Shown: positions 8,384 through 50,018, numbered from the stretch's first letter. The stretch: DNA of 64,000 bases from Minisyncoccia bacterium (GCA_049997795.1 JBEKVT010000001.1:101067-165066), one strand, 5' to 3'. Numbers and translations: made by a program. The notes: generated from the letters alone by a model not told the origin.

Positions 8384-8473
8384 TGGCGGAGACGGTGGGA
8401 TTCGAACCCACGAGGGAGTTTCCCCCCTAACACCTTAGCACGGTGCCGCTTTCGACCGCTCAGCCACGTCTCC
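8384..8473 (-). tRNA. tRNA-Ser (anticodon GCU), 90 nt including an encoded CCA
   Basis: Manual fold: acceptor GGAGACG/CGUCUCC, anticodon loop GUGCUAA, a long variable arm and T-arm GGGUUCGAAUCCC. Confidence 0.8.
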
Positions 8474-10814: not shown

Positions 10815-10815
10815 T

Positions 10816-10887
10816 GCACGCGCCAGGACTTGAACCTGGAACCGATCGCGTATAAGGCGACTGCTCTACCATTGAGCTACGCGTGCG
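10816..10887 (-). tRNA. tRNA-Ile with anticodon UAU as encoded (possible Ile2-type), 72 nt, CCA not encoded
   Basis: Manual fold: acceptor GCACGCG/CGCGUGC, D-arm GCUCAAUGGUAGAGC, anticodon loop CUUAUAC and T-arm CCAGGUUCAAGUCCUGG. Confidence 0.65.
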
Positions 10888-19558: not shown

Positions 19559-19924
19559 TGGTGGAGATGGCGGGAATCGAACCCGCGTGCAATCGAAGCG
19601 AACCGGACGGTTCTACGGCGGTAGTCAGGTTTGATGTCTGACGGCCGTGCTCGAAACGAGACAAAACACATGGCCGCGATCTCTTTGATTCGGATGGCGG
19701 AGTGAGAAGCTCCGCCGCCCTACATCCAGGTTATGACATCGCACTACGGTAAGGATCCCCGTAGATAGACGCGCTCTACTTAAGCGAGAGCGAATGCAAA
19801 GTCCTTCGCTCCGAAATACGGAGAAACGGTTGATTTGGCACTTCAGATTTGGAACGGATTTGCGAGTCATTCCGGCTCGCGCCGCCCGAACGGACGCCGG
19901 CGATTGTCTATGCCGATCATCCCC
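19559..19924 (-). ncRNA. ssrA: tmRNA (ssrA), ~366 nt
   Basis: The 5' end GGGGAUGAUCGGCAUAGAC resembles the tmRNA 5' consensus. The 3' end is tRNA-Ala-like, GGUUCGAUUCCCGCCAUCUCCACCA. The internal tag frame ...GCG AAG GAC UUU GCA UUC GCU CUC GCU UAA gives (A)KDFAFALA*. The ORF-track hits inside this region are spurious. Confidence 0.85.
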
Positions 19925-30204: not shown

Positions 30205-30600
30205 TCACCAGATCTTGAAAAGGACTTCCCCGCCGGCCCTCGTCTTCTTGGCGTCTTCGTCCATGAGCACTCCCTTCGGCGTAGACAGGAAGGTGTTGCC
30301 GAAGCCGCTCCGGAAGGCGCGGATGTCGCCGGCTCTCTGATAGACCCGGCGCGACGGCTTGGAGACGCGTTCCACTCCGTGGATCCTCGGGCCGGCCTGG
30401 TCGAAATATCGAAGGCCGATCTCCAGGCTCCTGTCGAAGAGCTCGCCTTTCTTCTCGACCGATTCGATGTAGCCGGCCTTCTTCAGGGCGTAGGCGACGT
30501 TCTCGGCGAACTTCGAATACGGCACTTCGACCGACGGTTTCTTGGCGTTCGAGCCGTTCTTCAGGCGGATGATGAAATCTCCGATGGGGTCGGTCACCAT
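30205..30600 (-). CDS. rpsH: 30S ribosomal protein S8
   Basis: [16 protein letters not shown]... matches S8. Confidence 0.85.
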
Positions 30601-30779
30601 GATGATTTCTTGATGCCGGGGATCATGCCTTCATTGGCGAATTCGCGGAAGCAGATGCGGCAAAGGTCGAAATCCCTCATGTAGCCGCGCTTCCGGCCGC
30701 AACGGAAACAGCGCCGGACCACGCGCGACTTGAATTTCGGCTTCCTTTTCGACCTGACGACGACTGACGTCTTTGCCAT
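30594..30779 (-). CDS. rpsZ: 30S ribosomal protein S14 (type Z, zinc-binding)
   Basis: 61 aa with the CxxC...CxxC pattern ([22 protein letters not shown]). Confidence 0.85.
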
Positions 30780-30953
30780 GGATGTTCGGGTAGCTCCGTT
30801 CCCCGGAAAAACAAAGGGGATTGGTCAGCTCCGCCCTGCCGGGGTTCGCTTCCAATCGCTTTTTCCTCGAAATGCCGGGTATCTAGAGGTAAGGGAGATG
30901 CTAACAGATGCCCGGTGGCGAGTCAAGGCTCGGGACCGGCCGGGGGCTCGCCA

Positions 30954-31298
30954 CTAATCGCCCCCTTTCAGGGCGTTCAGGAGGCCGTGGATGACCGCGA
31001 GGACAAGAGCGAAGAAGAAGGCCGCCCAGAAGCCGGACACCGTGAAATCCGGCACCATATAGGCGGCTAGCATCACCAGGGCGGCGTTGATGACCAAGGT
31101 GAAGAGGCCGAGAGTGATCACGTTTATCGGCAGGGTCAGGAAGATCAGTATCGGCCTAAGGAGCATGTTGATGGCGCCGAGCACCGCGGCGAGGATGAGC
31201 GCCGCCACGAAGCCGCTCACGGCCACGCCGGGCAGGATGTAGGCAGTCACGAGTATGGCCGCGGCGTATAGGAACCAGTTGAGGATCAATTTGATCAT
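30954..31298 (-). CDS. Holin-like / 4-TM small membrane protein family, hypothetical
   Basis: 114 aa with four hydrophobic helices, inserted between rpsZ and rplE. Confidence 0.45.
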   Translation of the reverse strand: MIKLILNWFLYAAAILVTAYILPGVAVSGFVAALILAAVLGAINMLLRPILIFLTLPINVITLGLFTLVINAALVMLAAYMVPDFTVSGFWAAFFFALVLAVIHGLLNALKGGD

Positions 31299-31399
31299 TG
31301 CGAGATAGATGATACCAGAAGAGAGCCGCCTCGGCTATCCCTTTTCTCGCCTTGACCGGTTCACTATCCCAGGGTAAGGTGAAGAAAAAGGAGGTTGTT

Positions 31400-31819
31400 A
31401 TGGATAAAAACAGTTCTTCGAACAATAACAATGTAAGGTGGTTCATCAAGGCCATCAGCACCAATCTCAAGACTGCAATCGAGCAGAGGGACGACAAAAT
31501 GATCACTGCTCGGTATAAGGTGAGTTGTGTCGATCGTAACGGCAGAGAGATCGGTCCGTATAGTCTCTATGAGATCCCGGCTGATTTCAAAGACGACATC
31601 GTCAAGAACAGGGTCGACTTCGGTTTCGAGTTCGTGCTGTTCCGCGCCGTGGGCGAAGGCCGGCCGGTCGTCTATTACGAATGGCCCAGAGGCAGACCTG
31701 CTTACCCGGCGCCAAAACACCGGCGGCTGAAGAAGGGTTCGGTCTTCCCGGGCAGCGCCCTTCTCGGCGACAGAGTGCTCTTCGCTGAAAGAGCTGCCCG
31801 CGTCGATAGCCACCCCTAG
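31400..31819 (+). CDS. Hypothetical protein (139 aa) with a low-complexity N-terminus. It is the only plus-strand gene inside the minus-strand r-protein run
   Basis: AAGGAGG lies 6 nt upstream of the ATG at 31400. The track ORF starts further upstream. Confidence 0.45.
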   Translation: MDKNSSSNNNNVRWFIKAISTNLKTAIEQRDDKMITARYKVSCVDRNGREIGPYSLYEIPADFKDDIVKNRVDFGFEFVLFRAVGEGRPVVYYEWPRGRPAYPAPKHRRLKKGSVFPGSALLGDRVLFAERAARVDSHP

Positions 31820-31863
31820 TCCCAGCCTTTCCCCGTAGGCGGAGCTCTGCTCCGCTTTTTTAT

Positions 31864-32496
31864 TCAACGATCCAAGGCCCTTGCCACTTCCGCGTCGCTC
31901 GTCTGGTCGAAATCGTCGTAATATTCCCCGACGGCGCCGAGATAATCGGGGTCGACGAAGATGGCGACAACATCGTCGGCCTCGGCCTTGAGGGCCTCGG
32001 CCGCGGACGCCGGCATGACAGGCACGGCGATGACAAGCCTCAATGGCTTCTGTTTCCGGAGCATCCTGGCCGCAGCCATGATCGTCAGGCCGGTGGCGAT
32101 GCCGTCGTCAGTGAGGATGGCTGTCTTGCCCGTCGCGGGAATGGCCGGCCGGCTGCCCTGATAGAGCTCCTTACGGCGCTTGATCTCCTCCGTTTGGCGC
32201 TCAATCTCCCGTTCGAGCCAATCACGGTCGACCGTCTTCAATTCAGTTCCTTGGCCGACGAATGTCCCGTCTTCGGCCACTGCTCCGATCGCATATTCTG
32301 GATGGAGCGGGTGTCCGATCTTGCGGGTGATAGCCAGCTCGAGAGGCGCTTTCAGATGTTTTGCTGCTTCCGCGGCCACGATCACGCCGCCGCGCGGCAG
32401 GCCGTATATCACTGTCTTCGGCGAAAGGTACGGTTCGAGCAACTTCGCCAGCCGTTGGCCGGCATCAGCCCGGTTTTTGAAGCATGGCCTGTTCAT
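31864..32496 (-). CDS. Phosphoribosyltransferase-domain protein
   Basis: The PRTase fold signature AILTDDGIATGLTI; 210 aa. Confidence 0.6.
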   Translation of the reverse strand: MNRPCFKNRADAGQRLAKLLEPYLSPKTVIYGLPRGGVIVAAEAAKHLKAPLELAITRKIGHPLHPEYAIGAVAEDGTFVGQGTELKTVDRDWLEREIERQTEEIKRRKELYQGSRPAIPATGKTAILTDDGIATGLTIMAAARMLRKQKPLRLVIAVPVMPASAAEALKAEADDVVAIFVDPDYLGAVGEYYDDFDQTSDAEVARALDR

Positions 32497-32882
32497 GATC
32501 TCTTGCTCTTCTCCCGCTTCACCACCTCGTCTTCGTTCAGGCCGAAATGGTGCGCCACCTCGTGCCAGATCGTTTCTTCCACGACCCGCTGCACCGGGAT
32601 ACCGTCCTCTTCAGCGGCCTTGAGGATCGGCCGGCGGTACAGAGTGATGGTATCCGGTAGGGTGCCGGCTATGCCGTAGCTCTCGCCTCGGGCGGTCCGG
32701 GGGATGCCGTGATAGAGGCCGAGCAGAGTCTCGTCCTTAGCAAGCCCCATGTCGCGGCGCGTCTCTTCCGGCACATCGTCCTCGACGAGCAGAGCCGCAT
32801 TCTCGATCAGACCTCGGAACTTCTCCGGCACGGGCGAGAAGCCTACGTCCGCCACGAGCCTTTTGAATGCGGTCCAGTCCAT
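32493..32882 (-). CDS. Putative zinc metallopeptidase (DUF1025-like, HExxH)
   Basis: WHEVAHHFGLNEDE motif; 129 aa. Confidence 0.5.
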   Translation of the reverse strand: MDWTAFKRLVADVGFSPVPEKFRGLIENAALLVEDDVPEETRRDMGLAKDETLLGLYHGIPRTARGESYGIAGTLPDTITLYRRPILKAAEEDGIPVQRVVEETIWHEVAHHFGLNEDEVVKREKSKRS

Positions 32883-32930
32883 ACGTCATTTATAGCACAA
32901 AAAACCGCCCGGGGTCCTTCCGAGCGGCTG

Positions 32931-33494
32931 TTATTTCTTCGCCTCTTCCCTCTTCAAGGGCAAGCCTAGGTGCTCGAGGAAGGCCAGAGTGGCGTTCTTG
33001 TCTCTCGAGGTGGTGACGATAGTGATGGACATGCCGAAGACGTCTTTCAGGTCCTCGTCGGCGGTCTCCGGGAATATGGTGTGCTCCTTTATGCCGATGG
33101 TGAAATTGCCCATGGCGTCGACGGAAGTCCTCGGCAGGCCACGGAAATCTTTGGTGCGGGGCAGGGCGAGGTGGATGAGACGGTCCAGGAAATCGGTCAT
33201 GCGCCTGCCGCGCAGGGTCACTTGGTAGGCGACCGGGTCGCCTTCGCGCGTCTTGAAAGAAGCGATGGCCTTTTTGGTGACCCGAACGGCCGGCTTCTGG
33301 CCGGTTATCCTGGTCAAGCGGTCGGCGATGAGCTCTATCTTCTTCTTGTCCTTGACCGAGCCGAAGCCGCTCGAGACGACGATCTTCGCGAGGCGCGGCG
33401 TCTGCATCGGGTTCGTGAGATGGAGCTTCCCGCCGAGGTCCCTGAAAGAATCCTTGCTGAGCTCGTATGAGGTTTTGGGCGTGATGACAGTCAT
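32931..33494 (-). CDS. rplE: 50S ribosomal protein L5
   Basis: MTVITPKTSYELSKDSFRDLGG... matches L5. The track ORF to 33872 is a spurious upstream extension. Confidence 0.85.
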   Translation of the reverse strand: MTVITPKTSYELSKDSFRDLGGKLHLTNPMQTPRLAKIVVSSGFGSVKDKKKIELIADRLTRITGQKPAVRVTKKAIASFKTREGDPVAYQVTLRGRRMTDFLDRLIHLALPRTKDFRGLPRTSVDAMGNFTIGIKEHTIFPETADEDLKDVFGMSITIVTTSRDKNATLAFLEHLGLPLKREEAKK

Positions 33495-36153: not shown

Positions 36154-36504
36154 TTATTTCTTCGTGTCGGCGGCTAGGGCGGCGGCTTTGGCGGCCTGAG
36201 CAGAAGCGATCTCGGCCTCCTTGGCCTTGATCTCGAGCTCTTTCTGCATCTTGCCGCCGTGGCGGACGAACTTCTTAGTGGGCGAAAATTCACCGAGGCG
36301 GTGTCCTACCATGTCCTCGGTGACGAATACTTCTATATGCTGTTTGCCGTTGTGGACGCCGAAAGTGAAGCCGATCATCTCCGGCGAGATCTGGGAGCGG
36401 CGGGCCCAAGTATTCACCACGCCCAAAGAGGCCGGCTTCTTGCCGGAGATCTTTTTGATGATCGATTCATCGACGTAAGGGCCTTTTTTTAGCGAGCGGG
36501 ACAT
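36154..36504 (-). CDS. rpsS: 30S ribosomal protein S19 with an Ala/Lys-rich C-terminal extension
   Basis: [18 protein letters not shown]... matches S19. Confidence 0.85.
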
Positions 36505-36585
36505 TGAGGCTTGTAGAAAGAAAATCAGCTCCGAGGAGCTTCCCCGCATAGTAGCAGAGCCGTATTTTTAAGTCAATATGATATA

Positions 36586-37386
36586 ATGAGCGGCATCATT
36601 ATGAACGTCTATCTCGTGGCCGCCGTGGTCGTCATCGCCTTGACCGGGGCCGCCATGGCGGCCATTCTGGCCGTCTTGTGGCGCAAGCTCCGTGAGGACG
36701 AGAGCATGAAGCGCGAGTTCGCCTCCATCATCGCCCACAAGTTCCGCACTCCCCTGACCCACATCAAATGGTCGGCCGACAACCTGATCATGAGCGAGAC
36801 GGATCCGTACAGCAAGCGCAGTCTCGCCGACATCAAGGAATCCAACGAGAAGCTCATCAAGCTGACCGGCACGCTCCTCGAGCTTACCGATTCGGACGAC
36901 GCCGCGGTCTCGTCGTACAAATTCGAGCGCCTCGACATCTGTTCCCTGGCCCGGACCGCCGTCGAGGCTTCGAGGAAGGCTCTCCACGAGAAGAACCTGT
37001 TCCTGTCGATCAATTGCGCGGAACCGGAGATATTCGTCAGAGCGGACCGTTCGCGGATGGAGTTCGTCCTAGCCGCTCTCCTCGACAATGCCTGCCTCTA
37101 CAGCCCGCCCGGACGCGACGTCTCTGTGGCCGTGTCGGCAGAAGGCAGCGATGCCGCCATATCGGTCACCGACAACGGCATCGGCATGGCTCCGGCCGAC
37201 ATTTCAAGGGTCTTCACCAAGTTCTTCCGGTCCAAAGAGGCTAAGGCGGCCGACAGCGAGGGGTTCGGCGTCAGCTTGTATCTGGCTCAGAGCGTCGCGA
37301 GGCGCCACGGCGGTAAGATCCGGGCCGAGTCCGAAGGATCGGGCAAGGGCTCGACCTTCAGCGTCGTCCTGCCGAGAGTGAATTGA
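36586..37386 (+). CDS. Sensor histidine kinase (HisKA + HATPase_c), no adjacent response regulator
   Basis: H-box SIIAHKFRTPL, G1 DNGIGM, G2 GFGVSLYLA, and an N-terminal TM helix. Confidence 0.75.
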   Translation: MSGIIMNVYLVAAVVVIALTGAAMAAILAVLWRKLREDESMKREFASIIAHKFRTPLTHIKWSADNLIMSETDPYSKRSLADIKESNEKLIKLTGTLLELTDSDDAAVSSYKFERLDICSLARTAVEASRKALHEKNLFLSINCAEPEIFVRADRSRMEFVLAALLDNACLYSPPGRDVSVAVSAEGSDAAISVTDNGIGMAPADISRVFTKFFRSKEAKAADSEGFGVSLYLAQSVARRHGGKIRAESEGSGKGSTFSVVLPRVN

Positions 37387-37417
37387 TCAGGTATATTTTT
37401 CCGGTCTCCTCCAGTAA

Positions 37418-37852
37418 TCACTTCCTGCCGCGCCGGCGCTTGTAGAAATTCTTCGATTCGCGGGTGATAGCCAGGATGCCGATCACGCCGATATAAGAGG
37501 CGCTGACTTCGGCCGGCAGATGGTATGACGGATTGTAGAAGGTGTCCCCGACGATGAGGGCAAGCACCAGGATCGTCCAGAGGATGGCATAGAGCTCGCC
37601 GGGATGCATGGAGCTGTGCATGTGGTGCCAGCGTCGGAATTCCTTCTCGGCGCTGTATATGGCGAGAAGAGCCGTGTAGATAGCGGCGATGGCCAGGAGA
37701 ACCTCGGCTTTCGAAAGGATATTGTCTTGGTAGAAATCGTAGGCGATGGCCGCGAAGAAGATCGCCGTCCAGAAATTGACCATGTGGCGCCAGAGCTTGA
37801 ACGAACCGGCCTTTTGAAGATCGAAGTGTTTCATGTTTGAGACCTGTATCAC
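37418..37852 (-). CDS. Hypothetical membrane protein
   Basis: 144 aa with four TM helices, directly upstream of the ABC permease gene. Confidence 0.4.
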   Translation of the reverse strand: MIQVSNMKHFDLQKAGSFKLWRHMVNFWTAIFFAAIAYDFYQDNILSKAEVLLAIAAIYTALLAIYSAEKEFRRWHHMHSSMHPGELYAILWTILVLALIVGDTFYNPSYHLPAEVSASYIGVIGILAITRESKNFYKRRRGRK

Positions 37853-39090
37853 TCGAACCGCAGGGCCTCGATGGGGCTCTTCTTGGAAGCTTGGCTAGCC
37901 GGGTAGCCGCCGAAGACCAAGCCGATCACGGTGGAAACCGAGAGCCCGAGGATGACGCCGCTCCACGGGAAGACGAACTGCCAATTGAGAGCCAAGAAGT
38001 GCGACAAGGCAAAAGCGGTCAGGAAGGCCAGACCGGCGCCCAAGACGATGCCTATCACTCCGCCGATCACCGTGAGAAGAACGGCTTCCAGGAGGAATTG
38101 CGTGAGGATGTCGCGGTCTTTCGCCCCGAGAGCCTTCCTCAAGCCGATCTCTCTGGTGCGCTCGGTCACGGAGACCAGCATGATGTTCATGATGCCGACG
38201 CCGCCCACGAATAGGGCGATCGAGGCCACGGCCACAAGGAACCAGGTCAGGGCCGAGGTGATGGTGCCCAGGGTGTTGGCCAGGGTCTGCTGGGTCTCTA
38301 TGGTGAAATCGTCCTTCGTCGGATCGGTGATGTTATGCGATTCCTCCAGGGTCAGCTTGATGTAGCTTGCGGTCACCGGAACGGCCGCGTCGGAGACGGC
38401 TTGGGTGACGATGCGGTTGTAATACTTCTGGCCGGTCACGTACGTCATGGCCGTCGTATAAGGCATGATGACCATGGAGTCGAAATTGAAGAGCGAGCCG
38501 CCGCCTGACTTAGGCAACACCGCCACTATGCGGAAATTGCGGCCTTTTATCTTTATGTTCTGATTCAACGGATCCTGATTGTCGAAAAGGTATTTGGCGA
38601 CGTCGCCGCCTATCACAACCACGCTCAAATACGAGTCCACGTCGCTCTGGTCGAAGAACAGCCCTTCCGAAGGCACAAGGTTGAAAATGTCGGCGATCAA
38701 GTTGGTGCCGCCGAAGATAGTGACCTGATAGGTGTTCGGTCCGTATGAAGCCACATCGGCGCCGATCACGACCGGCATGAGCGACTCTAGGCCGGGCACG
38801 TTCGCTTTGTTCTCGAGGGCCGTCACGTCCTTCGGTTTCAATGAATCGCTGAACAGGGCGGAGGCGTTCGACGACGGATTAGTCGATACTTGGCCGGGGA
38901 TAATGGCGATGGTATTCGTGCCGAGGCCCTGGACCTCGCCCAAGATCAGGTTCTGGGCTCCGGCCCCCAAGGACACCACCAGCATGATGGCGGTTATGCC
39001 GATCACGATGCCGAGGATGGTCAAGGACGACCGCGAACGGTTGGTGGTGAGTCCGGTCAGCGAGGTCTTGAAGGTGTGGCGCCAGGTCAT
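37849..39090 (-). CDS. ABC transporter permease, FtsX/MacB family
   Basis: MTWRHTFKTSL... shows the MacB/FtsX topology: an N-terminal TM helix, a large periplasmic domain and three C-terminal TM helices. The N-terminal 123 aa of the track ORF overlap the ATPase gene and were trimmed. Confidence 0.75.
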   Translation of the reverse strand: MTWRHTFKTSLTGLTTNRSRSSLTILGIVIGITAIMLVVSLGAGAQNLILGEVQGLGTNTIAIIPGQVSTNPSSNASALFSDSLKPKDVTALENKANVPGLESLMPVVIGADVASYGPNTYQVTIFGGTNLIADIFNLVPSEGLFFDQSDVDSYLSVVVIGGDVAKYLFDNQDPLNQNIKIKGRNFRIVAVLPKSGGGSLFNFDSMVIMPYTTAMTYVTGQKYYNRIVTQAVSDAAVPVTASYIKLTLEESHNITDPTKDDFTIETQQTLANTLGTITSALTWFLVAVASIALFVGGVGIMNIMLVSVTERTREIGLRKALGAKDRDILTQFLLEAVLLTVIGGVIGIVLGAGLAFLTAFALSHFLALNWQFVFPWSGVILGLSVSTVIGLVFGGYPASQASKKSPIEALRFE

Positions 39091-39095
39091 ATGGA

Positions 39096-39821
39096 TTATT
39101 TTATGAATTCGTCCTCCGACGTCAGGCGGTCTTTGACCTTGACGTCGCTCTCGATCTCCCCGTCCATGAGCTTCATGATGCGTTCGGCATGGTCGGCCGT
39201 GGTAGCCTCGTGGGTGATGAGGACGATGGTCTTGCCGTGCTCCTCGTTCAGGTGCTGGATGATCGACATGACGTTCTTGCCGGCCTTGGAGTCGAGATTG
39301 CCCGTCGGCTCGTCGGCGAAGATGATCTCCGGATCGTTGACCAGGGCCCTGGCTATGGCCACGCGCTGTTTCTCTCCGCCGGAGAGCTCCGCCTGCTTGT
39401 GATGCATGCGCTGGCCGAGGCCGACGTCTTCGACCGCCTTCCTGGCGCGCTTCTCCCACTCATGCTCCGGCACGCTCGAGTAATAGAGGGGCAGTTTGAC
39501 GTTTTCCAGGACGGTGGTGCGCGGCAGGAGGTTGAAGGCCTGGAAGACGAAGCCGAGCTTCTCGTTCCGGATCTTGGCCAATTCGTTGCCAGAGTAAGAT
39601 GATACGTCTTTGCCGTCGAAGTGATAGACGCCGGAAGTCGGCTCGTCGAGGAGACCCAGAAGGTGGAGTAGGGTCGATTTGCCTGATCCTGACGGACCCA
39701 TGATAGCCAGGAACTCCCCTTTCCTGACGTTGAAAGTCACGCCGTTCAGGGCCACCGTGGCGGTGGCTCCGCCGTCGTGATAGACCTTCTTCAAGTCCTT
39801 GACTTCGATGATGTTAGCCAT
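39096..39821 (-). CDS. ABC transporter ATP-binding protein (MacB/LolD-like)
   Basis: Walker A GPSGSGKST, signature LSGGEKQR and Walker B IIFADEPT. Confidence 0.85.
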   Translation of the reverse strand: MANIIEVKDLKKVYHDGGATATVALNGVTFNVRKGEFLAIMGPSGSGKSTLLHLLGLLDEPTSGVYHFDGKDVSSYSGNELAKIRNEKLGFVFQAFNLLPRTTVLENVKLPLYYSSVPEHEWEKRARKAVEDVGLGQRMHHKQAELSGGEKQRVAIARALVNDPEIIFADEPTGNLDSKAGKNVMSIIQHLNEEHGKTIVLITHEATTADHAERIMKLMDGEIESDVKVKDRLTSEDEFIK

Positions 39822-41296
39822 TACTTCACGTACGTCACTACCTTGTCGCCGACAGAGAGGCCGGAAACGATCTCGATAGTGCCGTAAGAGCCCTTGAGGC
39901 CTGTCACGACGGGCACGGGAGCGTAAGTCTTGCCGTCGGGACTGACAAGGCGCACGGTCTTCGAGCCACTGGTGTCGGTGACGGCCCGATAAGGGATCTC
40001 TAAGACGCCGTCGCGCTCGTGGGTCAGGATCTCGAGATTGGCCGTCATGCCGGAACGGATGCGGCTATCCGGATTCACGAATACCAGAGTGACTTTGTAG
40101 GTCGGTACGCCTTCGAGGACGGTCTCGGCCGGATCGATCATGATGACCTTGGCCGGAAAATCCGTGTCTGAGCCGTAAGCGTCGAGAGTGCTCGACGCCA
40201 GATCGCCGACGGAGACTTTGGCGATATCGGCTTCAGGCACGTAAGCCTCTACCTTGAAATCATTGTTCTGCACCGCGAAGCCGGACTGGCCTGGCGCCGC
40301 GTATTCGCCGACATCCGGGTCGGCCCTGGTGACGACGCCGTCGATCGGCGAGACGAGGGTGTCTTGGTCGAGAAGGGCTTGGGCTTGGGCGACTTTAGCG
40401 GCCAGGGCGGCGATCGATTGGGAGGAATTGCCGGCGAGCTTCAGGTCATAATTGGATTGAGCGGTGGAAAGGCCGGTTTGCGCCGCCGTCACGGAGTCGG
40501 TGGCGGTATTCAGAACGGAAAGCCCGGAATTCATGGTCGCTACGACGGCATTGATCTGGACTTGAGTCATGCTCGAGTTCCCGGGATTCAGCGCATTAAC
40601 GACGACCGAAAGGTCGGTCATGAAGCTCTTCACGGTCGAGAGATACCCGCTTGAGCGCGAGATGAGGCTTGCCGGGTCGAGGGCAGCGCTCAAGAGGTCG
40701 GCTGACCATTGGTTGAGGATCCCTGTGATGTTCAGGCGCTCTTGGTTCAAGGCGGTCTGGATGGGAACGGTGTCGGTGCGGATATAGAGGGTCGGGTTGG
40801 AACTCTGGGGGTTGGAGAAGAAGGCATCGGTGTAATTGAACAGGGCGTTCTGGGCCTTGACGAGGCCGTCATGAGCGGCGTTCAGGGCGTCTTTCTTGGC
40901 GTTGTCGAGCGAGGTCTTCTGGACGGCCAGCTCTTCGGGCGTCAGGCCGCGCGACAGGTCGGCCAAACTAGCTTCGGCGCTTGAGAGGGCCGCCCGATCG
41001 TTGCCGCTGTCGAGCGAAGCTATAAGGTCTCCCCTCTTCACGGCATCGCCAACCTTGACATAGATCCTGGAGATGACTCCGCCCTTCTCGAAAGCCAAGT
41101 CGGCCTTGGCGATCGGCGAGATCGTGCCGGTTACGCTCACCGTTTCTATGACGTTGCCTATTTGGGCCGCGGCCGTCTCGAATATCGGGACAGAACTACC
41201 GCTTCGCGCCCAGACGATGAGGATGACTATGATGATGACGGCGAGCCCGGCGATGACCCACTTATTTTTTAAATACTGCCAATAAGATTTTTTCAT
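39821..41296 (-). CDS. Efflux periplasmic adaptor subunit (HlyD/MacA family)
   Basis: An N-terminal TM helix, a long coiled coil, and beta-barrel/MP domains (SPIDGVVTRADPDVGEY...). Confidence 0.7.
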   Translation of the reverse strand: MKKSYWQYLKNKWVIAGLAVIIIVILIVWARSGSSVPIFETAAAQIGNVIETVSVTGTISPIAKADLAFEKGGVISRIYVKVGDAVKRGDLIASLDSGNDRAALSSAEASLADLSRGLTPEELAVQKTSLDNAKKDALNAAHDGLVKAQNALFNYTDAFFSNPQSSNPTLYIRTDTVPIQTALNQERLNITGILNQWSADLLSAALDPASLISRSSGYLSTVKSFMTDLSVVVNALNPGNSSMTQVQINAVVATMNSGLSVLNTATDSVTAAQTGLSTAQSNYDLKLAGNSSQSIAALAAKVAQAQALLDQDTLVSPIDGVVTRADPDVGEYAAPGQSGFAVQNNDFKVEAYVPEADIAKVSVGDLASSTLDAYGSDTDFPAKVIMIDPAETVLEGVPTYKVTLVFVNPDSRIRSGMTANLEILTHERDGVLEIPYRAVTDTSGSKTVRLVSPDGKTYAPVPVVTGLKGSYGTIEIVSGLSVGDKVVTYVK

Positions 41297-42360
41297 GCGG
41301 TATATTGTAGCATATCGTCCTTGCGCTGTTTAATGAGACTCTCCAGCTTCTTGGCGTTGCCGTGGCTGATCAGGCCGAGGTATGACTGCACAGTCTCCGC
41401 CTTTCCTTGTTTTTGCCGGATGCCTCGGAACATGCGCTTTTTCGTCGCCGTCCGTAGCACTCGATGATCCGGGAAAGTGACCCAACCGAGATAATCGACG
41501 CCAGACGCAATAGTTTTAATTGAGATTTTTCTCGGGTGAAGTTGAAGTTTCAACTTGCTCGATAAAAACTCTTTGATCGGGGGTAAAAGCCCGATGAGCC
41601 ATTCCTTATCGCGGGAAATGATAATGAAATCGTCGGCATAGCGGATATAGTATTTCGCCTTTAATTTGTGCTTCACGAACTGGTCGAACTCGTTCATATA
41701 GACATTCACGAGAAGCTGTGAGGTCAGGTTGCCGAGAGGCAGGCCGATGCCCTTTTTTACTGATGAAAAGCTTTTGATGACCTTTGATAGAAGGCCAACC
41801 GTATTTTTGTCAGGAATACGTTCGTCGAGGATGCCTATTAAAACCTCCTGGTCTATCGACGCGAAGAACTTCCTGATATCGCATTTCAGGACCCAGACGG
41901 TCTTCGTATGATTCTGCGAGGCCTTGTAGGCGAATGACCGGAATCTGTCCATGGCCTTGTGCGTTCCCTTGCCCAGACGGCATGAGAATGAATCAGATAT
42001 GAACCTCCTGTCGAAGAACGGATAAAGTTTCCTGTGCAGTGCATGATGCAACAGCCTGTCTCTCACCTCGGCCTTGTGGATATCGCGGCGCTTGGGATCA
42101 TAGATCCGGAAAAATTCATAAGGCGAGTGCTCGTAAGTTTTGGACGCCAGATCGTTGTGGAGCGAGATGATATTGCCCATCAAATCCCGCTCGAATTCTT
42201 GGACATCCTTGCGTTTTCGTTTCCCTTTTACAAATTCCTTCCAGGCCTCAAGAAGATTTTCGAGAGAAATGATATCATCATAGGCATGAACAAATTGGAT
42301 CCGTCGCAGACCCGTAAAGCCCCCCCCCCACGCAATTTTGCCGGTTTTGAATAAGATCAA
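41293..42360 (-). CDS. Diversity-generating retroelement reverse transcriptase (Brt-like)
   Basis: DGR-specific motif GLPLGNLTSQLLVNVYM (a SQ motif instead of the group II QG) and YADDFIII. The N-terminus ENLLEAWKEFVKGKRKRK and other blocks align with Bordetella phage Brt. An adjacent TR/VR pair is present. Confidence 0.85.
   Translation of the reverse strand: MILFKTGKIAWGGGFTGLRRIQFVHAYDDIISLENLLEAWKEFVKGKRKRKDVQEFERDLMGNIISLHNDLASKTYEHSPYEFFRIYDPKRRDIHKAEVRDRLLHHALHRKLYPFFDRRFISDSFSCRLGKGTHKAMDRFRSFAYKASQNHTKTVWVLKCDIRKFFASIDQEVLIGILDERIPDKNTVGLLSKVIKSFSSVKKGIGLPLGNLTSQLLVNVYMNEFDQFVKHKLKAKYYIRYADDFIIISRDKEWLIGLLPPIKEFLSSKLKLQLHPRKISIKTIASGVDYLGWVTFPDHRVLRTATKKRMFRGIRQKQGKAETVQSYLGLISHGNAKKLESLIKQRKDDMLQYTA
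42320..42329. repeat. Homopolymeric C10 (G10 on the minus strand) tract
   Basis: Read directly from the sequence. It lies in the 5' coding region of the RT (codons W-G-G-G) and just upstream of the avd start. Confidence 0.8.
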
Positions 42361-42688
42361 AGATGCTTATCTGCTTTGGCATGGTTATCACCAGGAATTA
42401 CCGAAAATCCACAGGTATTCGCTAGGATCTCGCATTGACTCGTTATTTATAGAGATCATCGAGGCCGTCGCGGCGGCAAGCTTCTTGTCTCGCGAAGAAA
42501 AACACCCTTACGTGCGCCTGGCGATCAGAAAATCGGATGCGCTCAAGATACTTCTGATGGTCCTCTGGGAAACGAAATCGCTCGACGACAAGAAGTATAT
42601 CGCATTGTCGGTGAAATTGGACGAGGTTGGCAGAAACCTCGGCGGCTGGAGCGGCCAGCTCATGAAACAAAACTCCCCCAACAAATAG
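42338..42688 (+). CDS. avd: Avd-like accessory variability determinant (four-helix-bundle family), encoded divergently from the RT
   Basis: LPKIHRYSLGSRIDSLFIEIIEA and the C-terminal VGRNLGGWSGQLMKQ resemble Avd/four-helix-bundle proteins (compare bAvd ...VGRILGSWIARVNRK). The start is TTG at 42338 or 42347. Confidence 0.65.
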   Translation: MPVLNKIKDAYLLWHGYHQELPKIHRYSLGSRIDSLFIEIIEAVAAASFLSREEKHPYVRLAIRKSDALKILLMVLWETKSLDDKKYIALSVKLDEVGRNLGGWSGQLMKQNSPNK

Positions 42689-42712
42689 TAGGGGGAGAAA
42701 TGAAGAGAGTTA

Positions 42713-42834
42713 CGGACACCGCCGCCGGATTGTCACTGTTCCAGTCGTTGTCGAGCCTGTTGTAGTTCCAGTTCCACCTGTCGTCGTCCCAGTAGAGGTA
42801 ACGGACGTTGAGGTCGCCGTCAGCGTTGCGGTAT
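42713..42834 (-). repeat. DGR template repeat (TR), 122 nt core
   Basis: Hand alignment to the VR gives 122 nt without indels and 24 mismatches, 23 of them at TR adenines on the minus (sense) strand. The TR carries AAC/TAC/GAC codons where the VR has CTC/TTC/GGC and so on. The track ORF 42660..42860 is this repeat, not a gene. Confidence 0.8.
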
Positions 42835-43081
42835 CGTACGAAGTGCCCTCCGTGCCACAACCCCTCGAATGCTCTCGGGGTTGAATCGTATTCGGCATAT
42901 TTAATGCCCTAGCACCTCGTACCAAGTATTTTCATTTTTTAATGAAGTTCTGCATACACCACCCTACCCAAAACCTTGGTCGTGGATATTCTCGATGTAC
43001 GGATACTAGTTTCGGTAGCAAGCAACCTTGGTCGCTCACGTATTCACCTACTCCCGCCCCATCTTACCATACAGAAATCAG

Positions 43082-43109
43082 CCCTGTGCGTTGTCGCACA
43101 GGGCTGAGG
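43082..43109 (-). other. GC-rich hairpin ~55 nt downstream of the VR (cagccctgtgcg-ttgt-cgcacagggctg)
   Basis: Perfect 12-bp stem. Its position is analogous to the hairpin/cruciform 3' of the VR in the Bordetella phage DGR. Confidence 0.5.
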
Positions 43110-43155
43110 TTAAAGGTCATAGGTTCCGAAGAACAAATTGACCGAGGTTCAAGAA

Positions 43156-43779
43156 CTAACTTGCGGACACCGCCGCCGGATGGCCACTGAGCCAGAAGGA
43201 GTCGAGCCAGAAGAAGAGCCAGAGCCACCTGTCGTCGTCCCAGAAGAGGAAACGGACGAAGAGGCCGCCGCCAGCGCGGCGGTATATCGTGCCCCAGAAG
43301 AAGATGTAGCGGGTGTTGCCCTCTTCATCCTTTTTCCACTCCTCAGGGATGAGGTGCGGATTCTTCAGAAGGTAGTCGAGCACGTTGGCGTCCAGGACAG
43401 GCATCTTAGCGAGCTCCTTGCGGAGGTCGTTACCAACGATGGAACTGCCCTTCCTCTGCTTCTTCGACAAGTAGAACTCGATCTTCTTGCCGTCGACGTA
43501 GAGGTCGGGACCTTTCCGTTCGAGCTTGACGATACCGCCCTTGTGGTGCTCCTCGACCGTCCAGTTGTAGCCGGAGGGGATGACCGCATCGACACCGCAG
43601 TCGATGGCGTGTTCAACGGGCTTGATTTCGGCAAGACCTCGTTGGACATCCCTCACGCGGCCGAGGAAATCCCCGACTGTGAGAGCTTTTACTTCTTCCA
43701 GCGACTGGAAGCCGTTGCGGTTGAGTGCATGCTCGATTTCTTGAGCCAAACCAACACCGAGGATTAACTTGTCATTCAT
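43156..43779 (-). CDS. DGR variable (target) protein: N-terminal helix-hairpin-helix domain (ComEA-like), C-terminal variable region; no signal peptide
   Basis: 207 aa. LILGVGLAQEIEHALNRNGFQSLEEVKALTVGDFLGRV resembles an HhH motif. The VR occupies the last ~45 codons (...YRRAGGGLFVRFLFWDDDRWLWLFFWLDSFWLSGHPAAVSAS*). Confidence 0.75.
   Translation of the reverse strand: MNDKLILGVGLAQEIEHALNRNGFQSLEEVKALTVGDFLGRVRDVQRGLAEIKPVEHAIDCGVDAVIPSGYNWTVEEHHKGGIVKLERKGPDLYVDGKKIEFYLSKKQRKGSSIVGNDLRKELAKMPVLDANVLDYLLKNPHLIPEEWKKDEEGNTRYIFFWGTIYRRAGGGLFVRFLFWDDDRWLWLFFWLDSFWLSGHPAAVSAS
43164..43285 (-). repeat. DGR variable repeat (VR) at the 3' end of the target gene
   Basis: Cognate of the TR. The 17-nt 3' end is identical and GC-rich (IMH-like ccggcggcggtgtccg), after which the flanks diverge. 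Confidence 0.8.
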
Positions 43780-43943
43780 GACGTGTTTTTCTCCATAATG
43801 GACATGTTCGTTTAGAACTAGTCTGGTACTGTTGGGCTCCTCGTGTTGAGGTTTGCCACAGCGCTCAAGGACCTGAAGGGATTCAAGTCCCTAAACGCTG
43901 CGGCAAATGCAAGTTAGTCTTTCAAAGACCTTATTACCTTGCT

Positions 43944-43973
43944 ATTATACACCAAATGTGACTTGTATGTCAA
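43944..43973 (-). promoter_or_regulatory. Consensus sigma70 promoter TTGACA-18-TATAAT directed toward the DGR target gene
   Basis: Read on the minus strand. It is followed by a long imperfect hairpin (43853-43906) in the ~155-nt leader, then GGAG and ATG at 43779. Confidence 0.5.
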
Positions 43974-44032
43974 GATGTCCAAATCTGCCTTGAAACAAGG
44001 CCATTTCCTTCCACATAGAGAGGGTATGACGA

Positions 44033-44887
44033 TCAGCTTCCGCTCCTCATCAGTCGGCCGGGATTGCGGCGCGAGACGATGAAGACATTAGAATACTTCT
44101 TGGGAGTGCGGGTCTTCTGGCCCTTGCCCGCGGGCTTGCCCCAGCGGGTCTTCAGGCGGCGCAGGCCGCGGCCTTGGCGCTGTTCGCCGCCGCCGTAAGG
44201 ATGGTCGACCGGGTTCTGGGCGGTGCCGCGCACCGTGGGACGTATCCCCATCCAGCGCGAGCGGCCGGCCTTGCCGATGACCACCAGGCGATTCTCCTCG
44301 TTGGAAACGGCGCCGATCGAAGCCCAGGAATTCTGGTGGACTTTGCGGACCTCGGTCGAAGGCATCTTGATGTGGGTGTAGCCGGCGTCATTGGCGATGA
44401 CTTGGGCGAAAGAACCGGCCGAGCGGACAAGTTTGGCGCCGGAGCCGGGATTGATTTCGATGTTGTAGACGTATGTGCCGACCGGGATGTTCTTCAAAGG
44501 CAGGCGATTGCCTGTCTCGATCGGGGCTTTTTCGGAAACGATGAATGTGTTGCCGACTTTCATGGTCTTCGGCAGGAGGACGTAGCGCTTGGCGCCATCC
44601 CTGTAGGCGACCAGGCCGATGTAGCCGGTGCGGAAGGGATCGTACTCGACGGTCTTCACTGTGGCCGGGATGTCTTTCTTGTCATACAGGAAATCGACGA
44701 GGCGATAGAGCTTCTTGTGGCCGGCGCCCTTGTGGCGGACGGTGATGCGGCCGAAAGCGTTCCTGCCGACGTCGCGCTTGAAACCTGTTGTGAGCGGCTT
44801 GTACGGCTCGGACGCCGTCAAGTATTCCTTGAACGGCAAGGTTGTCATGTGGCGGCGCGATTTGGTTGTGGGTCGGTATGTCTTCAT
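44033..44887 (-). CDS. rplB: 50S ribosomal protein L2
   Basis: 284 aa with the GRNxxGxITxRHxGGGHK pattern. Confidence 0.9.
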   Translation of the reverse strand: MKTYRPTTKSRRHMTTLPFKEYLTASEPYKPLTTGFKRDVGRNAFGRITVRHKGAGHKKLYRLVDFLYDKKDIPATVKTVEYDPFRTGYIGLVAYRDGAKRYVLLPKTMKVGNTFIVSEKAPIETGNRLPLKNIPVGTYVYNIEINPGSGAKLVRSAGSFAQVIANDAGYTHIKMPSTEVRKVHQNSWASIGAVSNEENRLVVIGKAGRSRWMGIRPTVRGTAQNPVDHPYGGGEQRQGRGLRRLKTRWGKPAGKGQKTRTPKKYSNVFIVSRRNPGRLMRSGS

Positions 44888-48645: not shown

Positions 48646-49860
48646 CTAGACCCCGTCCTCTGATTTCCTGTTTAAGAATTCAGGGACAAAACCATTTTCT
48701 TCCAGAGCTCTTACTACATCCCTGAGAAGATAATTGTTACGGAACTGAATTGTATATTTTCTGCTTTTATTGCCCTTGGTCGGCACGAGCATCTCTTTAT
48801 CCTTTAACCGTTTAATTATGCGCGACCTTTGAACAGGCGAAGCCTCGTTCAATGCAGCTTTTATGTCTAAGGATTTAATCGTCATATCCTTAGTCTTAAC
48901 AACACAGCTCAAAACAGCATGCTCCTGATTATTTATACTCTTACGTTCAAGAGAATATCGGAGCGCGGGTATGAGAATGGTATCGGTGATATATTCCAAG
49001 TTAAGCAATTTATCAATTTTTTCTATCTCTTTACGTAAACCGTTTAGAACATATTCGCACCATTCAAGAACTTTGACTTCATCGCCAGTATCGGCAACCG
49101 CAAGCATTTCATAGTATTTCGCTCGATCCATACAAAAAATAGCAGTGGGGTTCAATATACGCCCTGTCTTAACCTGGAATCCTTGTTTGATTAACAGGGC
49201 GTATGTGAACATTCGGACAAATCTACCGTTGCCGTTATCAAATGGATGTATCCAAGCCATTCGGTGATGGGCAAGCGCAGTAATAAGCAGATGATACTTG
49301 GAACTGACAGAGGCATTAACAAATGTCATAAGTTCTTCAAAATATTCAGGCACCTTAATGCTCTTTGGTGGGACATGCGGCGACCCTGTAATCGATACAT
49401 CCACTGGTCTCAAGGCGCCAGGATAGTGAGAACCCTCTCCCCCTGGGGGAGGTGTGAGATCTTTTACAATAATCCTGTGTATTTCGGAAATCAGGGCGCG
49501 GTCAAAGATAGTTGTCTTCTTTATATTTTTCTCAATAAAATCAATGACATCTTCCAAATTAAAAATCTCTTTCATGCTTTCGTCCGCAGTAGCTCTGGAA
49601 GGATTTTCTATTACCTTTTCGACAAATTCCATCAGGGTCGTTCTATTCCCCTCAATGCGAGCAGATCCGAGGCTCTCAAATAATTGAAAAATCTCCTTCA
49701 ATTGGAAAAATACATGTGGTGGAACTGGGCCTCCAAGCCTTTTAACCCTTAATTTCTCTAGCTCTATGATAGTAGTCGCTAAATCAGAGCTCCATTTTGG
49801 ATCATAGAGCTTGAGTTCTGTGTGTTTAAATTGTTTAGTATTTTCCTTATCCATAATCAT
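48646..49860 (-). CDS. Fic/Doc (Fido) family protein, class II (N-terminal inhibitory S-x-x-x-E-G motif), C-terminal winged-helix domain
   Basis: The Fic active-site motif HPFDNGNGRFVR and the N-terminal SARIEGN inhibitory-helix motif. The coding GC content (~40%) is much lower than in the flanking genes. Confidence 0.8.
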   Translation of the reverse strand: MIMDKENTKQFKHTELKLYDPKWSSDLATTIIELEKLRVKRLGGPVPPHVFFQLKEIFQLFESLGSARIEGNRTTLMEFVEKVIENPSRATADESMKEIFNLEDVIDFIEKNIKKTTIFDRALISEIHRIIVKDLTPPPGGEGSHYPGALRPVDVSITGSPHVPPKSIKVPEYFEELMTFVNASVSSKYHLLITALAHHRMAWIHPFDNGNGRFVRMFTYALLIKQGFQVKTGRILNPTAIFCMDRAKYYEMLAVADTGDEVKVLEWCEYVLNGLRKEIEKIDKLLNLEYITDTILIPALRYSLERKSINNQEHAVLSCVVKTKDMTIKSLDIKAALNEASPVQRSRIIKRLKDKEMLVPTKGNKSRKYTIQFRNNYLLRDVVRALEENGFVPEFLNRKSEDGV

Positions 49861-49869
49861 GATTTAACA

Positions 49870-49898
49870 ATTATACCAAAAAACACATATGTGTCAAC
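49870..49898 (-). promoter_or_regulatory. Consensus promoter TTGACA-17-TATAAT; the predicted TSS is 0-3 nt from the Fic start codon (leaderless)
   Basis: Read on the minus strand. The -10 element ends 9 nt before the ATG at 49860. Confidence 0.5.
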
Positions 49899-49965
49899 GT
49901 ATATTACTAGTGCAAAATTGATTTCAATTAACACAGCCAGTCCTACCATTTAACAATATTTAAAT

Positions 49966-49996
49966 ATCGAAAAGGCCCTTATAAATTAAGGGCCTT
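49966..49996 (-). terminator. Intrinsic terminator after fusA (aaggccctta-...-taagggcctt + T-run)
   Basis: Read directly from the sequence. It separates fusA from the Fic cassette. Confidence 0.55.
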
Positions 49997-50018
49997 TTTA
50001 GTAATTAACCAATATTTC

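Follow-up and report, generated by a model that had tools for sequence, protein, structure and literature searches.

We analysed a stretch of 64,000 nucleotides (the window) from Minisyncoccia bacterium (GCA_049997795.1, JBEKVT010000001.1:101067-165066), in which the S10 run of ribosomal protein (r-protein) genes is interrupted between rplB, encoding L2, and rpsS, encoding S19. The closest L2 proteins belong to Paceibacterota/Taylorbacteria metagenome-assembled genomes, and the window rplB product, whose ORF (open reading frame) was taken from an earlier start codon than the gene callers use, is 76-92% identical to that of 80 Paceibacteria genomes. The intervening 7.5 kb carry a histidine kinase gene, the genes of a MacB-type exporter and a diversity-generating retroelement (DGR), and had been read in an initial annotation as one accessory insertion. 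We consider it probable that the region is instead a three-layer mosaic at an old transcription-unit boundary, of which only the ~2.7-kb DGR is species-specific.

Eleven features were catalogued from rplB to rpsS by ORF listing combined with Pfam and NCBIfam scans. All nine elements that the initial annotation had placed between the two r-protein genes were present; the strand of avd, which it had left unstated, is plus, opposite to that of the reverse transcriptase gene.

44033-44887, minus strand: rplB (L2), Pfam Ribosomal_L2_N and Ribosomal_L2_C; last gene of the upstream r-protein transcription unit
43156-43779, minus strand: DGR target gene, 207 aa, no Pfam match
42713-42834, minus strand: template repeat (TR), pairing with the variable repeat (VR) at 43164-43285
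42338-42688, plus strand: avd, Pfam bAvd, NCBIfam DivGenRetAVD, PHROG 'Avd protein of DGR'
41293-42360, minus strand: reverse transcriptase (RT), RVT_1
39821-41296, minus strand: HlyD-family membrane fusion protein (MFP), Pfam HlyD_D23/HlyD_3; long, 491 aa
39096-39821, minus strand: ABC ATPase, Pfam ABC_tran
37849-39090, minus strand: MacB-type permease, Pfam MacB_PCD and FtsX
37418-37852, minus strand: TM144, a 144-aa membrane protein, no Pfam match
36586-37386, plus strand: histidine kinase, 266 aa, HisKA and HATPase_c
36154-36504, minus strand: rpsS (S19), Pfam Ribosomal_S19; first gene of the downstream r-protein unit

The r-protein genes are arranged as tuf-rpsJ-rplC-rplD-rplW-rplB before the interval and rpsS-rplV-rpsC-rplP-rpmC-rpsQ-rplN-rplX-rplE after it, followed beyond a second break by rpsH-rplF-rplR-rpsE-rplO-secY.

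The kinase is minimal and membrane-anchored, with one N-terminal transmembrane (TM) segment followed by HisKA and HATPase_c, and is divergent from rpsS. It had been described as lacking an adjacent regulator, and a tblastn search with one OmpR-family query indeed detected no receiver-domain match in the 64-kb window. The genes for the MFP, ABC ATPase, permease and TM144 (37418-41296, minus strand) are co-directional and tightly spaced, at -4 to +5 nt, and have the make-up of a MacB-type tripartite exporter; NCBIfam gives partial matches to MacB PRK10535 in these genes. An extended -10 box, TGCTACAAT, is located at 41304..41312 on the minus strand, 7 nt before the MFP ATG and within the last codons of the RT gene, and a promoter scan returned a match for the MFP at 41332..41304. 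Boxes resembling TGCTACAAT occur 8-12 nt before the MFP ATG in the relatives L001, L011, L017 and L054, all of which lack the RT. The RT ORF continues through the native promoter sequence of the MFP, which is why its stop codon and the MFP start overlap (ATGA).

The rplB/rpsS junction in related genomes

Neighbourhoods of rplB were compared across 80 species-level genomes and several metagenome contigs, and homologues of every window gene were located. A neighbour-joining (NJ) tree of tuf, L3, L4 and L2 from 60 loci yields two clades. Clade A comprises 24 more distant genomes, in which rplB and rpsS are separated by 34-225 nt, with one gap of 626 nt. Clade B, with ~30 genomes including the window, has a gap of 1-8.8 kb in nearly all members, with five short-gap exceptions.

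The kinase adjoins rpsS on the opposite strand in most clade-B genomes (~25 relatives, 42-63% identity). Orthologues of the kinase and TM144 are found at the same junction in L009/L010, L014, L015 and L011, with the kinase in ~25 others. L014 and L015 have TM144, the opposite-strand kinase and rpsS in succession, exactly as in the window; the order in L009/L010 is opposite-strand kinase, TM144, rpsS. The MFP-ABC-MacB trio follows rplB in L001/L012, L005, L011, L017, L024, L026, L037, L046, L047 and L054, with orthologue identities of 59-85%, about equal to those of the neighbouring r-proteins L3 and L4. L011 combines these elements, reading rplB, MFP, ABC, MacB, a decarboxylase gene, the opposite-strand kinase and rpsS, with no DGR. 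Elsewhere in clade B the gap holds a class A penicillin-binding protein (PBP1), a 2089-aa surface protein, a DEAD-box helicase, MurB, or an aminotransferase together with a DAP/Orn decarboxylase. The trio also occurs at other sites, upstream of tuf in L019, L022, L055-57 and L081, and 100 kb away from the r-protein genes in L102. Contiguity of rplB and rpsS in related genomes, which the initial annotation had proposed as one check on an insertion, is seen in clade A, whereas five of the nine elements are at the junction in sister species of the window.

A predicted rpsS promoter (TTGACT-17-TACTAT, with a TG) lies at 36548-36576 on the minus strand. The pattern TTGACT-N17-TG.TA..AT is found directly upstream of rpsS in both clades, in ~50 genomes, and is present even where rplB and rpsS are only 40-140 nt apart. 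Its conservation in both clades points to the rplB/rpsS junction as an ancestral boundary between two transcription units, which in turn would explain the accumulation of genes at this position. The short rpsS leader contains a hairpin with a U-run (36527-36540, minus strand; GCUC-loop-GAGC) that is conserved across clade B and has no Rfam match; attenuation and binding of an r-protein are possible roles.

In relatives of both clades, rplB is followed by a small, unannotated ORF (22-45 aa) that has a hydrophobic tail and the motif K[GS]-hydrophobic-hydrophobic-[DE] (examples are L001 9823-9942, L017 1638-1769, L054 819-938, L015, L062 and L067). It is conserved in the trio-bearing relatives, reading for example ...HFPMFGFISGGLKGFIESILFHIIG..., and a similar micro-ORF occurs in clade A. 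The window retains a remnant at 43945..44016 on the minus strand, which reads MWKEMALFQGRF... and of which approximately the first 10 codons look homologous; the remainder has been replaced by the DGR promoter.

The second break in the r-protein run of the window, between rplE and rpsH (30600-32931), contains a Zincin_1 peptidase (32493-32882), a phosphoribosyltransferase (31864-32496), a hypothetical 167-aa protein and a Phage_holin_4_2 family protein (30954-31298). Insertions at rplE/rpsH also occur in the relatives L003, L006 and L009, and in L009/L013 a DGR is found just downstream of rplE, before the contig coverage reaches rpsH. The rplW product (L23; 44897-45385) has 162 aa, with a long and poorly conserved N-terminal extension (88-162 aa in relatives), and the 1 kb just upstream of tuf (49001-50000) has a GC content of 0.39 against a window mean of 0.57.

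The retroelement cassette

The TR and VR extend over 122-125 nt and are 80% identical; of their 26 substitutions, 25 are at TR adenines. The TR has only one VR partner in the window. The VR (43164-43285) lies in the 3' end of the target gene, encoding the C-terminus, and ends 8 nt before the stop codon. At the end of the TR/VR homology lies the GC-rich segment GGCGGCGGTGTCCG, which resembles an initiation of mutagenic homing (IMH) site. Approximately 50 nt downstream of the VR, a 13-bp GC-rich hairpin with a U-run (43078..43107, minus strand) could serve as a terminator and/or as the DGR homing hairpin; a hairpin with covarying stems follows all target homologues. Upstream of the TR is a non-coding block of ~225 nt (42835..43060, minus strand) that is highly conserved between the window, L102 and L105 and is absent after targets that lack TR, avd and RT directly downstream. 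A -10-like box directly behind the target's terminator hairpin precedes it, and the block is presumed to be the structured 5' part of the DGR RNA. A further hairpin at 42675..42694, between the TR on the minus strand and the end of avd on the plus strand, is terminator-like on the minus strand.

The RT matches RVT_1 (E = 4e-23) and PHROG 1423 (E = 1e-105), is 70% identical to the RT of L102, and has an intact ORF with the motifs LPLGNLTSQ and YIRYADDF, corresponding to the [I/L]GxxxSQ and YxDD signatures of the DGR clade. The avd product matches bAvd (E = 1.5e-8) and DivGenRetAVD (E = 7e-15), both under the curated cut-offs, as well as PHROG 3206 (E = 1e-13). The divergent layout of avd and RT, with avd antisense to the TR-RT strand, is also found in L009, L102, L133 and L135. 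At the 5' end of the RT gene, 9-18 nt upstream of the avd start, is a tract that is poly-G on the RT strand and poly-C on the other (42320..42329), the only homopolymer of such length in the 64 kb. Its length varies from G10 in the window to G11 in L091 and L110 and ~G13 in L095, and these are the sole indels among contigs that are 99.9% identical. The tract is kept in the related cassettes of L102 (G11) and L105 (G8). It may be a slippage switch, a ribosome-binding (Shine-Dalgarno-like) element or a sequencing artefact.

These observations bear on whether the DGR is still capable of diversifying its target. It is conceivable, although we regard it as unlikely, that the element is a decaying and inactive remnant, which would make the region no more than neutral clutter where insertions are permitted. 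All retrieved assemblies (at least eight) agree in the VR, and a 90% cluster of the target holds only two other variants. An ATG lies 12-14 nt after the G tract in L102 and L105, opening their RTs with 'MRRIQF', where the window has CTG; the homopolymer at the RT 5' end is of variable length, and a clearly decayed cassette is found in the same gap in L019. Against this, the RT ORF, avd and the TR are all intact, the catalytic motifs of the RT included, and 25 of 26 TR/VR differences fall at adenines. Furthermore, start codons are present in all three frames just upstream of and around the G tract, and the cluster member P0241 differs from the window target by G170D, at a TR-adenine position. 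A cassette with present-day activity would be consistent with these features.

The target belongs to a family of 883 homologues of ~190-210 aa with a hypervariable C-terminus ending in ...PAAVSAS, and is without a signal peptide. Profile searches of Pfam, PHROG, NCBIfam and PDB sequences gave no relative, and a confident AF2 model (pLDDT 93.7) gave no significant fold match. A metagenome scan with the target protein returned only 7 loci.

The complete cassette, comprising promoter, leader, target with VR, hairpin, non-coding block, TR, reverse avd and RT, covers ~41315-43980 (~2.7 kb) and occupies this position in the window species only. At its left edge the small post-rplB ORF is truncated, and at its right edge it abuts the MFP's own -10 box. 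Full cassettes were found elsewhere in L102 (from the same genome as L027, 100 kb from the r-protein genes), in L105, in L133 (8000-11570, beside a phage-type integrase) and in L135 (7800-10440, between ruvC/yebC and ruvB). Targets without avd and RT directly downstream occur in L054, L099, L106 and L134, but appear truly alone only in L054, L106 and L134; L099 (13025-16300) is a multi-target DGR locus, where the promoter-leader module recurs before each of three different target-type genes and where a further TR/VR pair (GVLRTVNVNWNDDGW... / GVLRTVRVSWGGDGW...) is present.

Several clade-B relatives have parts of such elements near rplB. L054, with 92% L2 identity to the window, carries a 42%-identical target between rplB and the MFP, without TR, avd or RT. 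This target is downstream of an intact small ORF and is directly followed by the MFP, which points to a separate insertion or a different history. L019 (11870-13540) has a decayed DGR in the rplB/rpsS gap. Besides a leader and a TR-like segment, it contains a target of 210 aa that belongs to a second family (...WWFAGLAK); of the RT only the C-terminal third is left, extending into the rpsS promoter. In L031, avd and RT come after rplB and the kinase. A DGR or its remnants are therefore present in the gap in the window, L019, L031 and L054, of ~35 clade-B genomes, a count that is only suggestive because the loci were chosen around rplB.

The promoter-leader module of the target genes

The initial annotation had pointed to a consensus promoter and a structured leader immediately after rplB. 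Both are confirmed: TTGACA-18-TATAAT at 43973..43944 on the minus strand is the sole 12/12 match in 8.9 kb and is predicted to be of the sigma-70 type, and the 164-nt leader (43780..43943, minus strand) folds far better than its shuffles, with a minimum free energy of -63.6 kcal/mol (z = -6.6). The pair is not linked to rplB, but is the 5' module of the target family. It was found, at unrelated loci, upstream of every target homologue examined (window, L054, L099, L102, L105-L108 and L133-L135) and also before two other target types, in L019 and L099. Relatives without a target do not have it. Since the promoter and leader are kept with targets and are absent without them, they belong to the target genes rather than to rplB or the exporter.

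The leader contains a long hairpin, P1 (~43852-43907, minus strand), and a second hairpin, P2. P1 has 22 predicted pairs, of which 9 show compensatory changes among 14 sequences (one example being UA:7, CG:5). When an 8-sequence set was used, 96% of cells were paired, compared with ~40% for slid partners, and no shuffle attained the observed covariation score. The wobbles are all G.U on the sense strand, which points to an RNA structure in the target transcript. No Rfam 15 family matched the leader or the TR region at gathering score, with none better than E ~0.9 over 42600-44050, and the literature searched makes no mention of a leader of DGR targets. A leader 16-mer gave 22 matches in viral contigs; these were dismissed as chance, as none has the full leader or a target homologue.

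The leader core CTAACTTGC (43909-43917) and the final 9 nt of the target ORF, GCAAGTTAG (43156-43164), are exact reverse complements of each other. The latter comprise the stop codon and VR-specific bases that start exactly where the TR/VR homology ends. Upon shuffling, a perfect 9-mer complement was obtained in 118 of 200,000 leaders. The complementarity was compared across a small sample of loci, and no leader was found in L109.

Seven loci: core CTAACTTGC, ORF 3' end GCAAGTTAG, invariant
L107: core TTAACTTGC, ORF 3' end GCAAGTTAG, one U.G pair
L135: core TCAACTTGC, ORF 3' end GCAAGTTGA, double compensatory change (TCA.../...TGA)
L099, second target: core TTACTTGTC, ORF 3' end GCAAGTAG, one base shorter on both sides
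L134: only 7 bp of the complementarity kept

From sequence comparison, a 5'-3' helix within the target mRNA is likely. Its pairing could gate translation termination or mRNA stability, or aid recognition of the homing site. We suggest only tentatively that the module is a dedicated cis-element of this lineage of candidate phyla radiation (CPR) DGRs, marking or controlling their targets through a helix between the 5' and 3' parts of one RNA molecule; in addition, the poly-G tract where avd and RT diverge could serve the element as a slippage switch.

A probable layered origin, its alternatives and known systems

The mosaic that we favour would have been assembled as follows. The 'S10 operon' of this Taylorbacteria-like lineage would consist of two transcription units, with rpsS having its own promoter, so that the gap between rplB and rpsS tolerates the gain, exchange and loss of genes without harm to ribosomal expression. 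The oldest layer would be the opposite-strand kinase beside rpsS together with TM144, ancestral to the whole clade. The middle layer would be the MFP-ABC-MacB exporter operon with its own extended -10 promoter, common to the nearest species at this site. The newest layer would be the ~2.7-kb CPR-type DGR cassette, which appears to have landed between the small post-rplB ORF and the MFP promoter, truncating the former. In the cassette, the RT would copy the TR RNA with errors at adenines, and the copy would replace the VR at the C-terminus of the target. The promoter and structured leader would drive, and probably regulate, the target gene rather than the exporter.

Some points weigh against this order of events, which we infer from the distribution of the genes. 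The promoters were called as consensus matches only. The tree is a quick NJ tree of four proteins, with the five short-gap genomes inside clade B, so that the ancestral state of clade B is itself an inferred one. The presence of the trio at other sites makes repeated relocation possible, as opposed to simple vertical descent at this junction. Finally, the lone target of L054 could mean that the target is older here than the RT, or that there were two separate insertions.

A different proposal would have the target and the MacAB-like exporter form a functional unit, the exporter secreting or displaying the target under the regulation of the kinase and co-location being selected. In the window, L102 and L054, an orthologous trio adjoins the target or cassette or lies within 5 kb of it. 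The stop codon of the RT gene also overlaps the MFP start, and many relatives have the kinase together with the trio around the r-protein cluster. However, the trio is at the site without any DGR in L001, L005, L011 and L017, and no trio lies within 8-9 kb of the target in seven other contexts. The MFP also keeps its own promoter, and the overlap is explained by the RT ORF running into that native sequence. We therefore find a functional unit improbable, and a general association of the target with MacAB was rejected, as only 3 of ~10 contexts show it.

The initial annotation's own view, a single recent ~7.5-kb island of kinase, exporter and DGR inserted into an intact S10 operon, is very improbable. 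Its claim stands for the DGR, which is species-specific, but not for the kinase, TM144 and the trio, which are resident in sister species. An island would agree with the adjacency of rplB and rpsS in more distant relatives and with the GC content, which falls to ~0.50 at 41-44 kb. Yet five of the nine elements have orthologues at the junction in sister species without a DGR, and L011, with exporter and kinase in place between rplB and rpsS, largely refutes a joint arrival. GC content at third codon positions (GC3) is 0.76-0.84 for the MFP, ABC, MacB, TM144, kinase and DGR target genes, compared with 0.74-0.86 for the r-protein genes, and is below the host only in avd (0.64) and RT (0.61). The compositional deviation expected of the whole 7.5 kb was thus not observed, and shared gene content with host-like composition, which the initial annotation had named as evidence against an insertion, is what we find for five of its nine elements. 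The dip in avd and RT recurs in L102 and L009, whose hosts differ in GC and where both genes are again 0.1-0.2 below their neighbours. It is therefore a property of the RT/avd family, and was rejected as a sign of recent transfer. The att-like or direct repeats suggested for the edges of the region were not found either: no direct or inverted repeat of at least 8 nt flanks the whole region or the DGR cassette (no shared 8-mer), no integrase or recombinase is present among the ORFs of the region, and an Rfam scan placed no tRNA near it. Elsewhere in the window are a tmRNA (19559-19924, minus strand; Rfam 101.8 bits) and tRNAs at 10815-10886 and 8387-8473.

An assembly or binning chimera, for which nothing specific speaks beyond the fact that metagenome-assembled CPR genomes can be chimeric, has a negligible probability: the 7.8 kb recur, at 99.9% identity or more and with the same junctions, in at least eight assemblies made independently from JGI, ENA and Logan samples. 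These stem from several projects and assemblers, and contigs of 657 kb and 155 kb are among them. The source samples are from peat and soil (JGI 3300038416, 3300018021 and 3300018057 are examples).

For genome scans and phylogenomics of Patescibacteria, it matters that the 'universal' block of ribosomal genes is not contiguous across a whole clade, and breaks at internal promoters. The r-protein gaps are filled mostly by ordinary chromosomal genes, and are therefore not automatically mobile islands. For DGRs, several target-gene families of one lineage have a strong promoter and a covarying structured leader in common. If the complementarity of the leader to the stop-codon/IMH end is functional, it would represent a new layer of control or recognition in mutagenic retrohoming.

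The window DGR is a member of a known CPR type. Wu et al. 2018 (PMC5758913) reported a single architecture, B3, for 90% of CPR DGRs, and described five CPR DGRs whose parts are separated by ribosomal protein genes. The window cassette shares with the B3 type the succession of target with VR, TR, reverse avd and RT, the adenine-specific TR/VR differences, a small target of unknown fold and a Patescibacteria host. Its family adds a conserved consensus promoter and a ~165-nt structured leader before each target, the complementarity between leader and ORF end, the conserved 225-nt block that precedes the TR, and the poly-G tract where the RT gene begins. None of these features is described in the literature searched or in Rfam, and the promoter-leader module with ORF-end complementarity appears to be new. 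With the DGR of Bordetella phage BPP-1 (mtd-avd-TR-brt), the window shares the RT motifs [I/L]GxxxSQ and YxDD, an Avd homologue, a C-terminal VR, a GC-rich, IMH-like segment where the homology ends and, past the VR, a GC hairpin. In contrast to BPP-1, the window DGR is on a chromosome and not on a phage, its avd is inverted, non-coding sequence precedes the TR where BPP-1 has avd, and the target has no significant structural match to a C-type lectin by Foldseek (best probability 0.23).

The exporter has the three components of MacAB-type systems (E. coli MacA/MacB; Bacillus YknXYZ), namely an MFP, an ABC ATPase and a four-TM permease, the last with a MacB periplasmic core domain and an FtsX domain. 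As in YknYZ, the ATPase and permease are separate polypeptides. Unlike in MacAB, an outer-membrane partner is not expected in the window organism, and the MFP is long. Compared with the bacterial S10-spc-alpha cluster, the canonical gene order is kept in the window. The cluster is broken at rplB/rpsS across one clade, and at rplE/rpsH in the window and several relatives, and rpsS has its own conserved promoter, even where rplB is adjacent.

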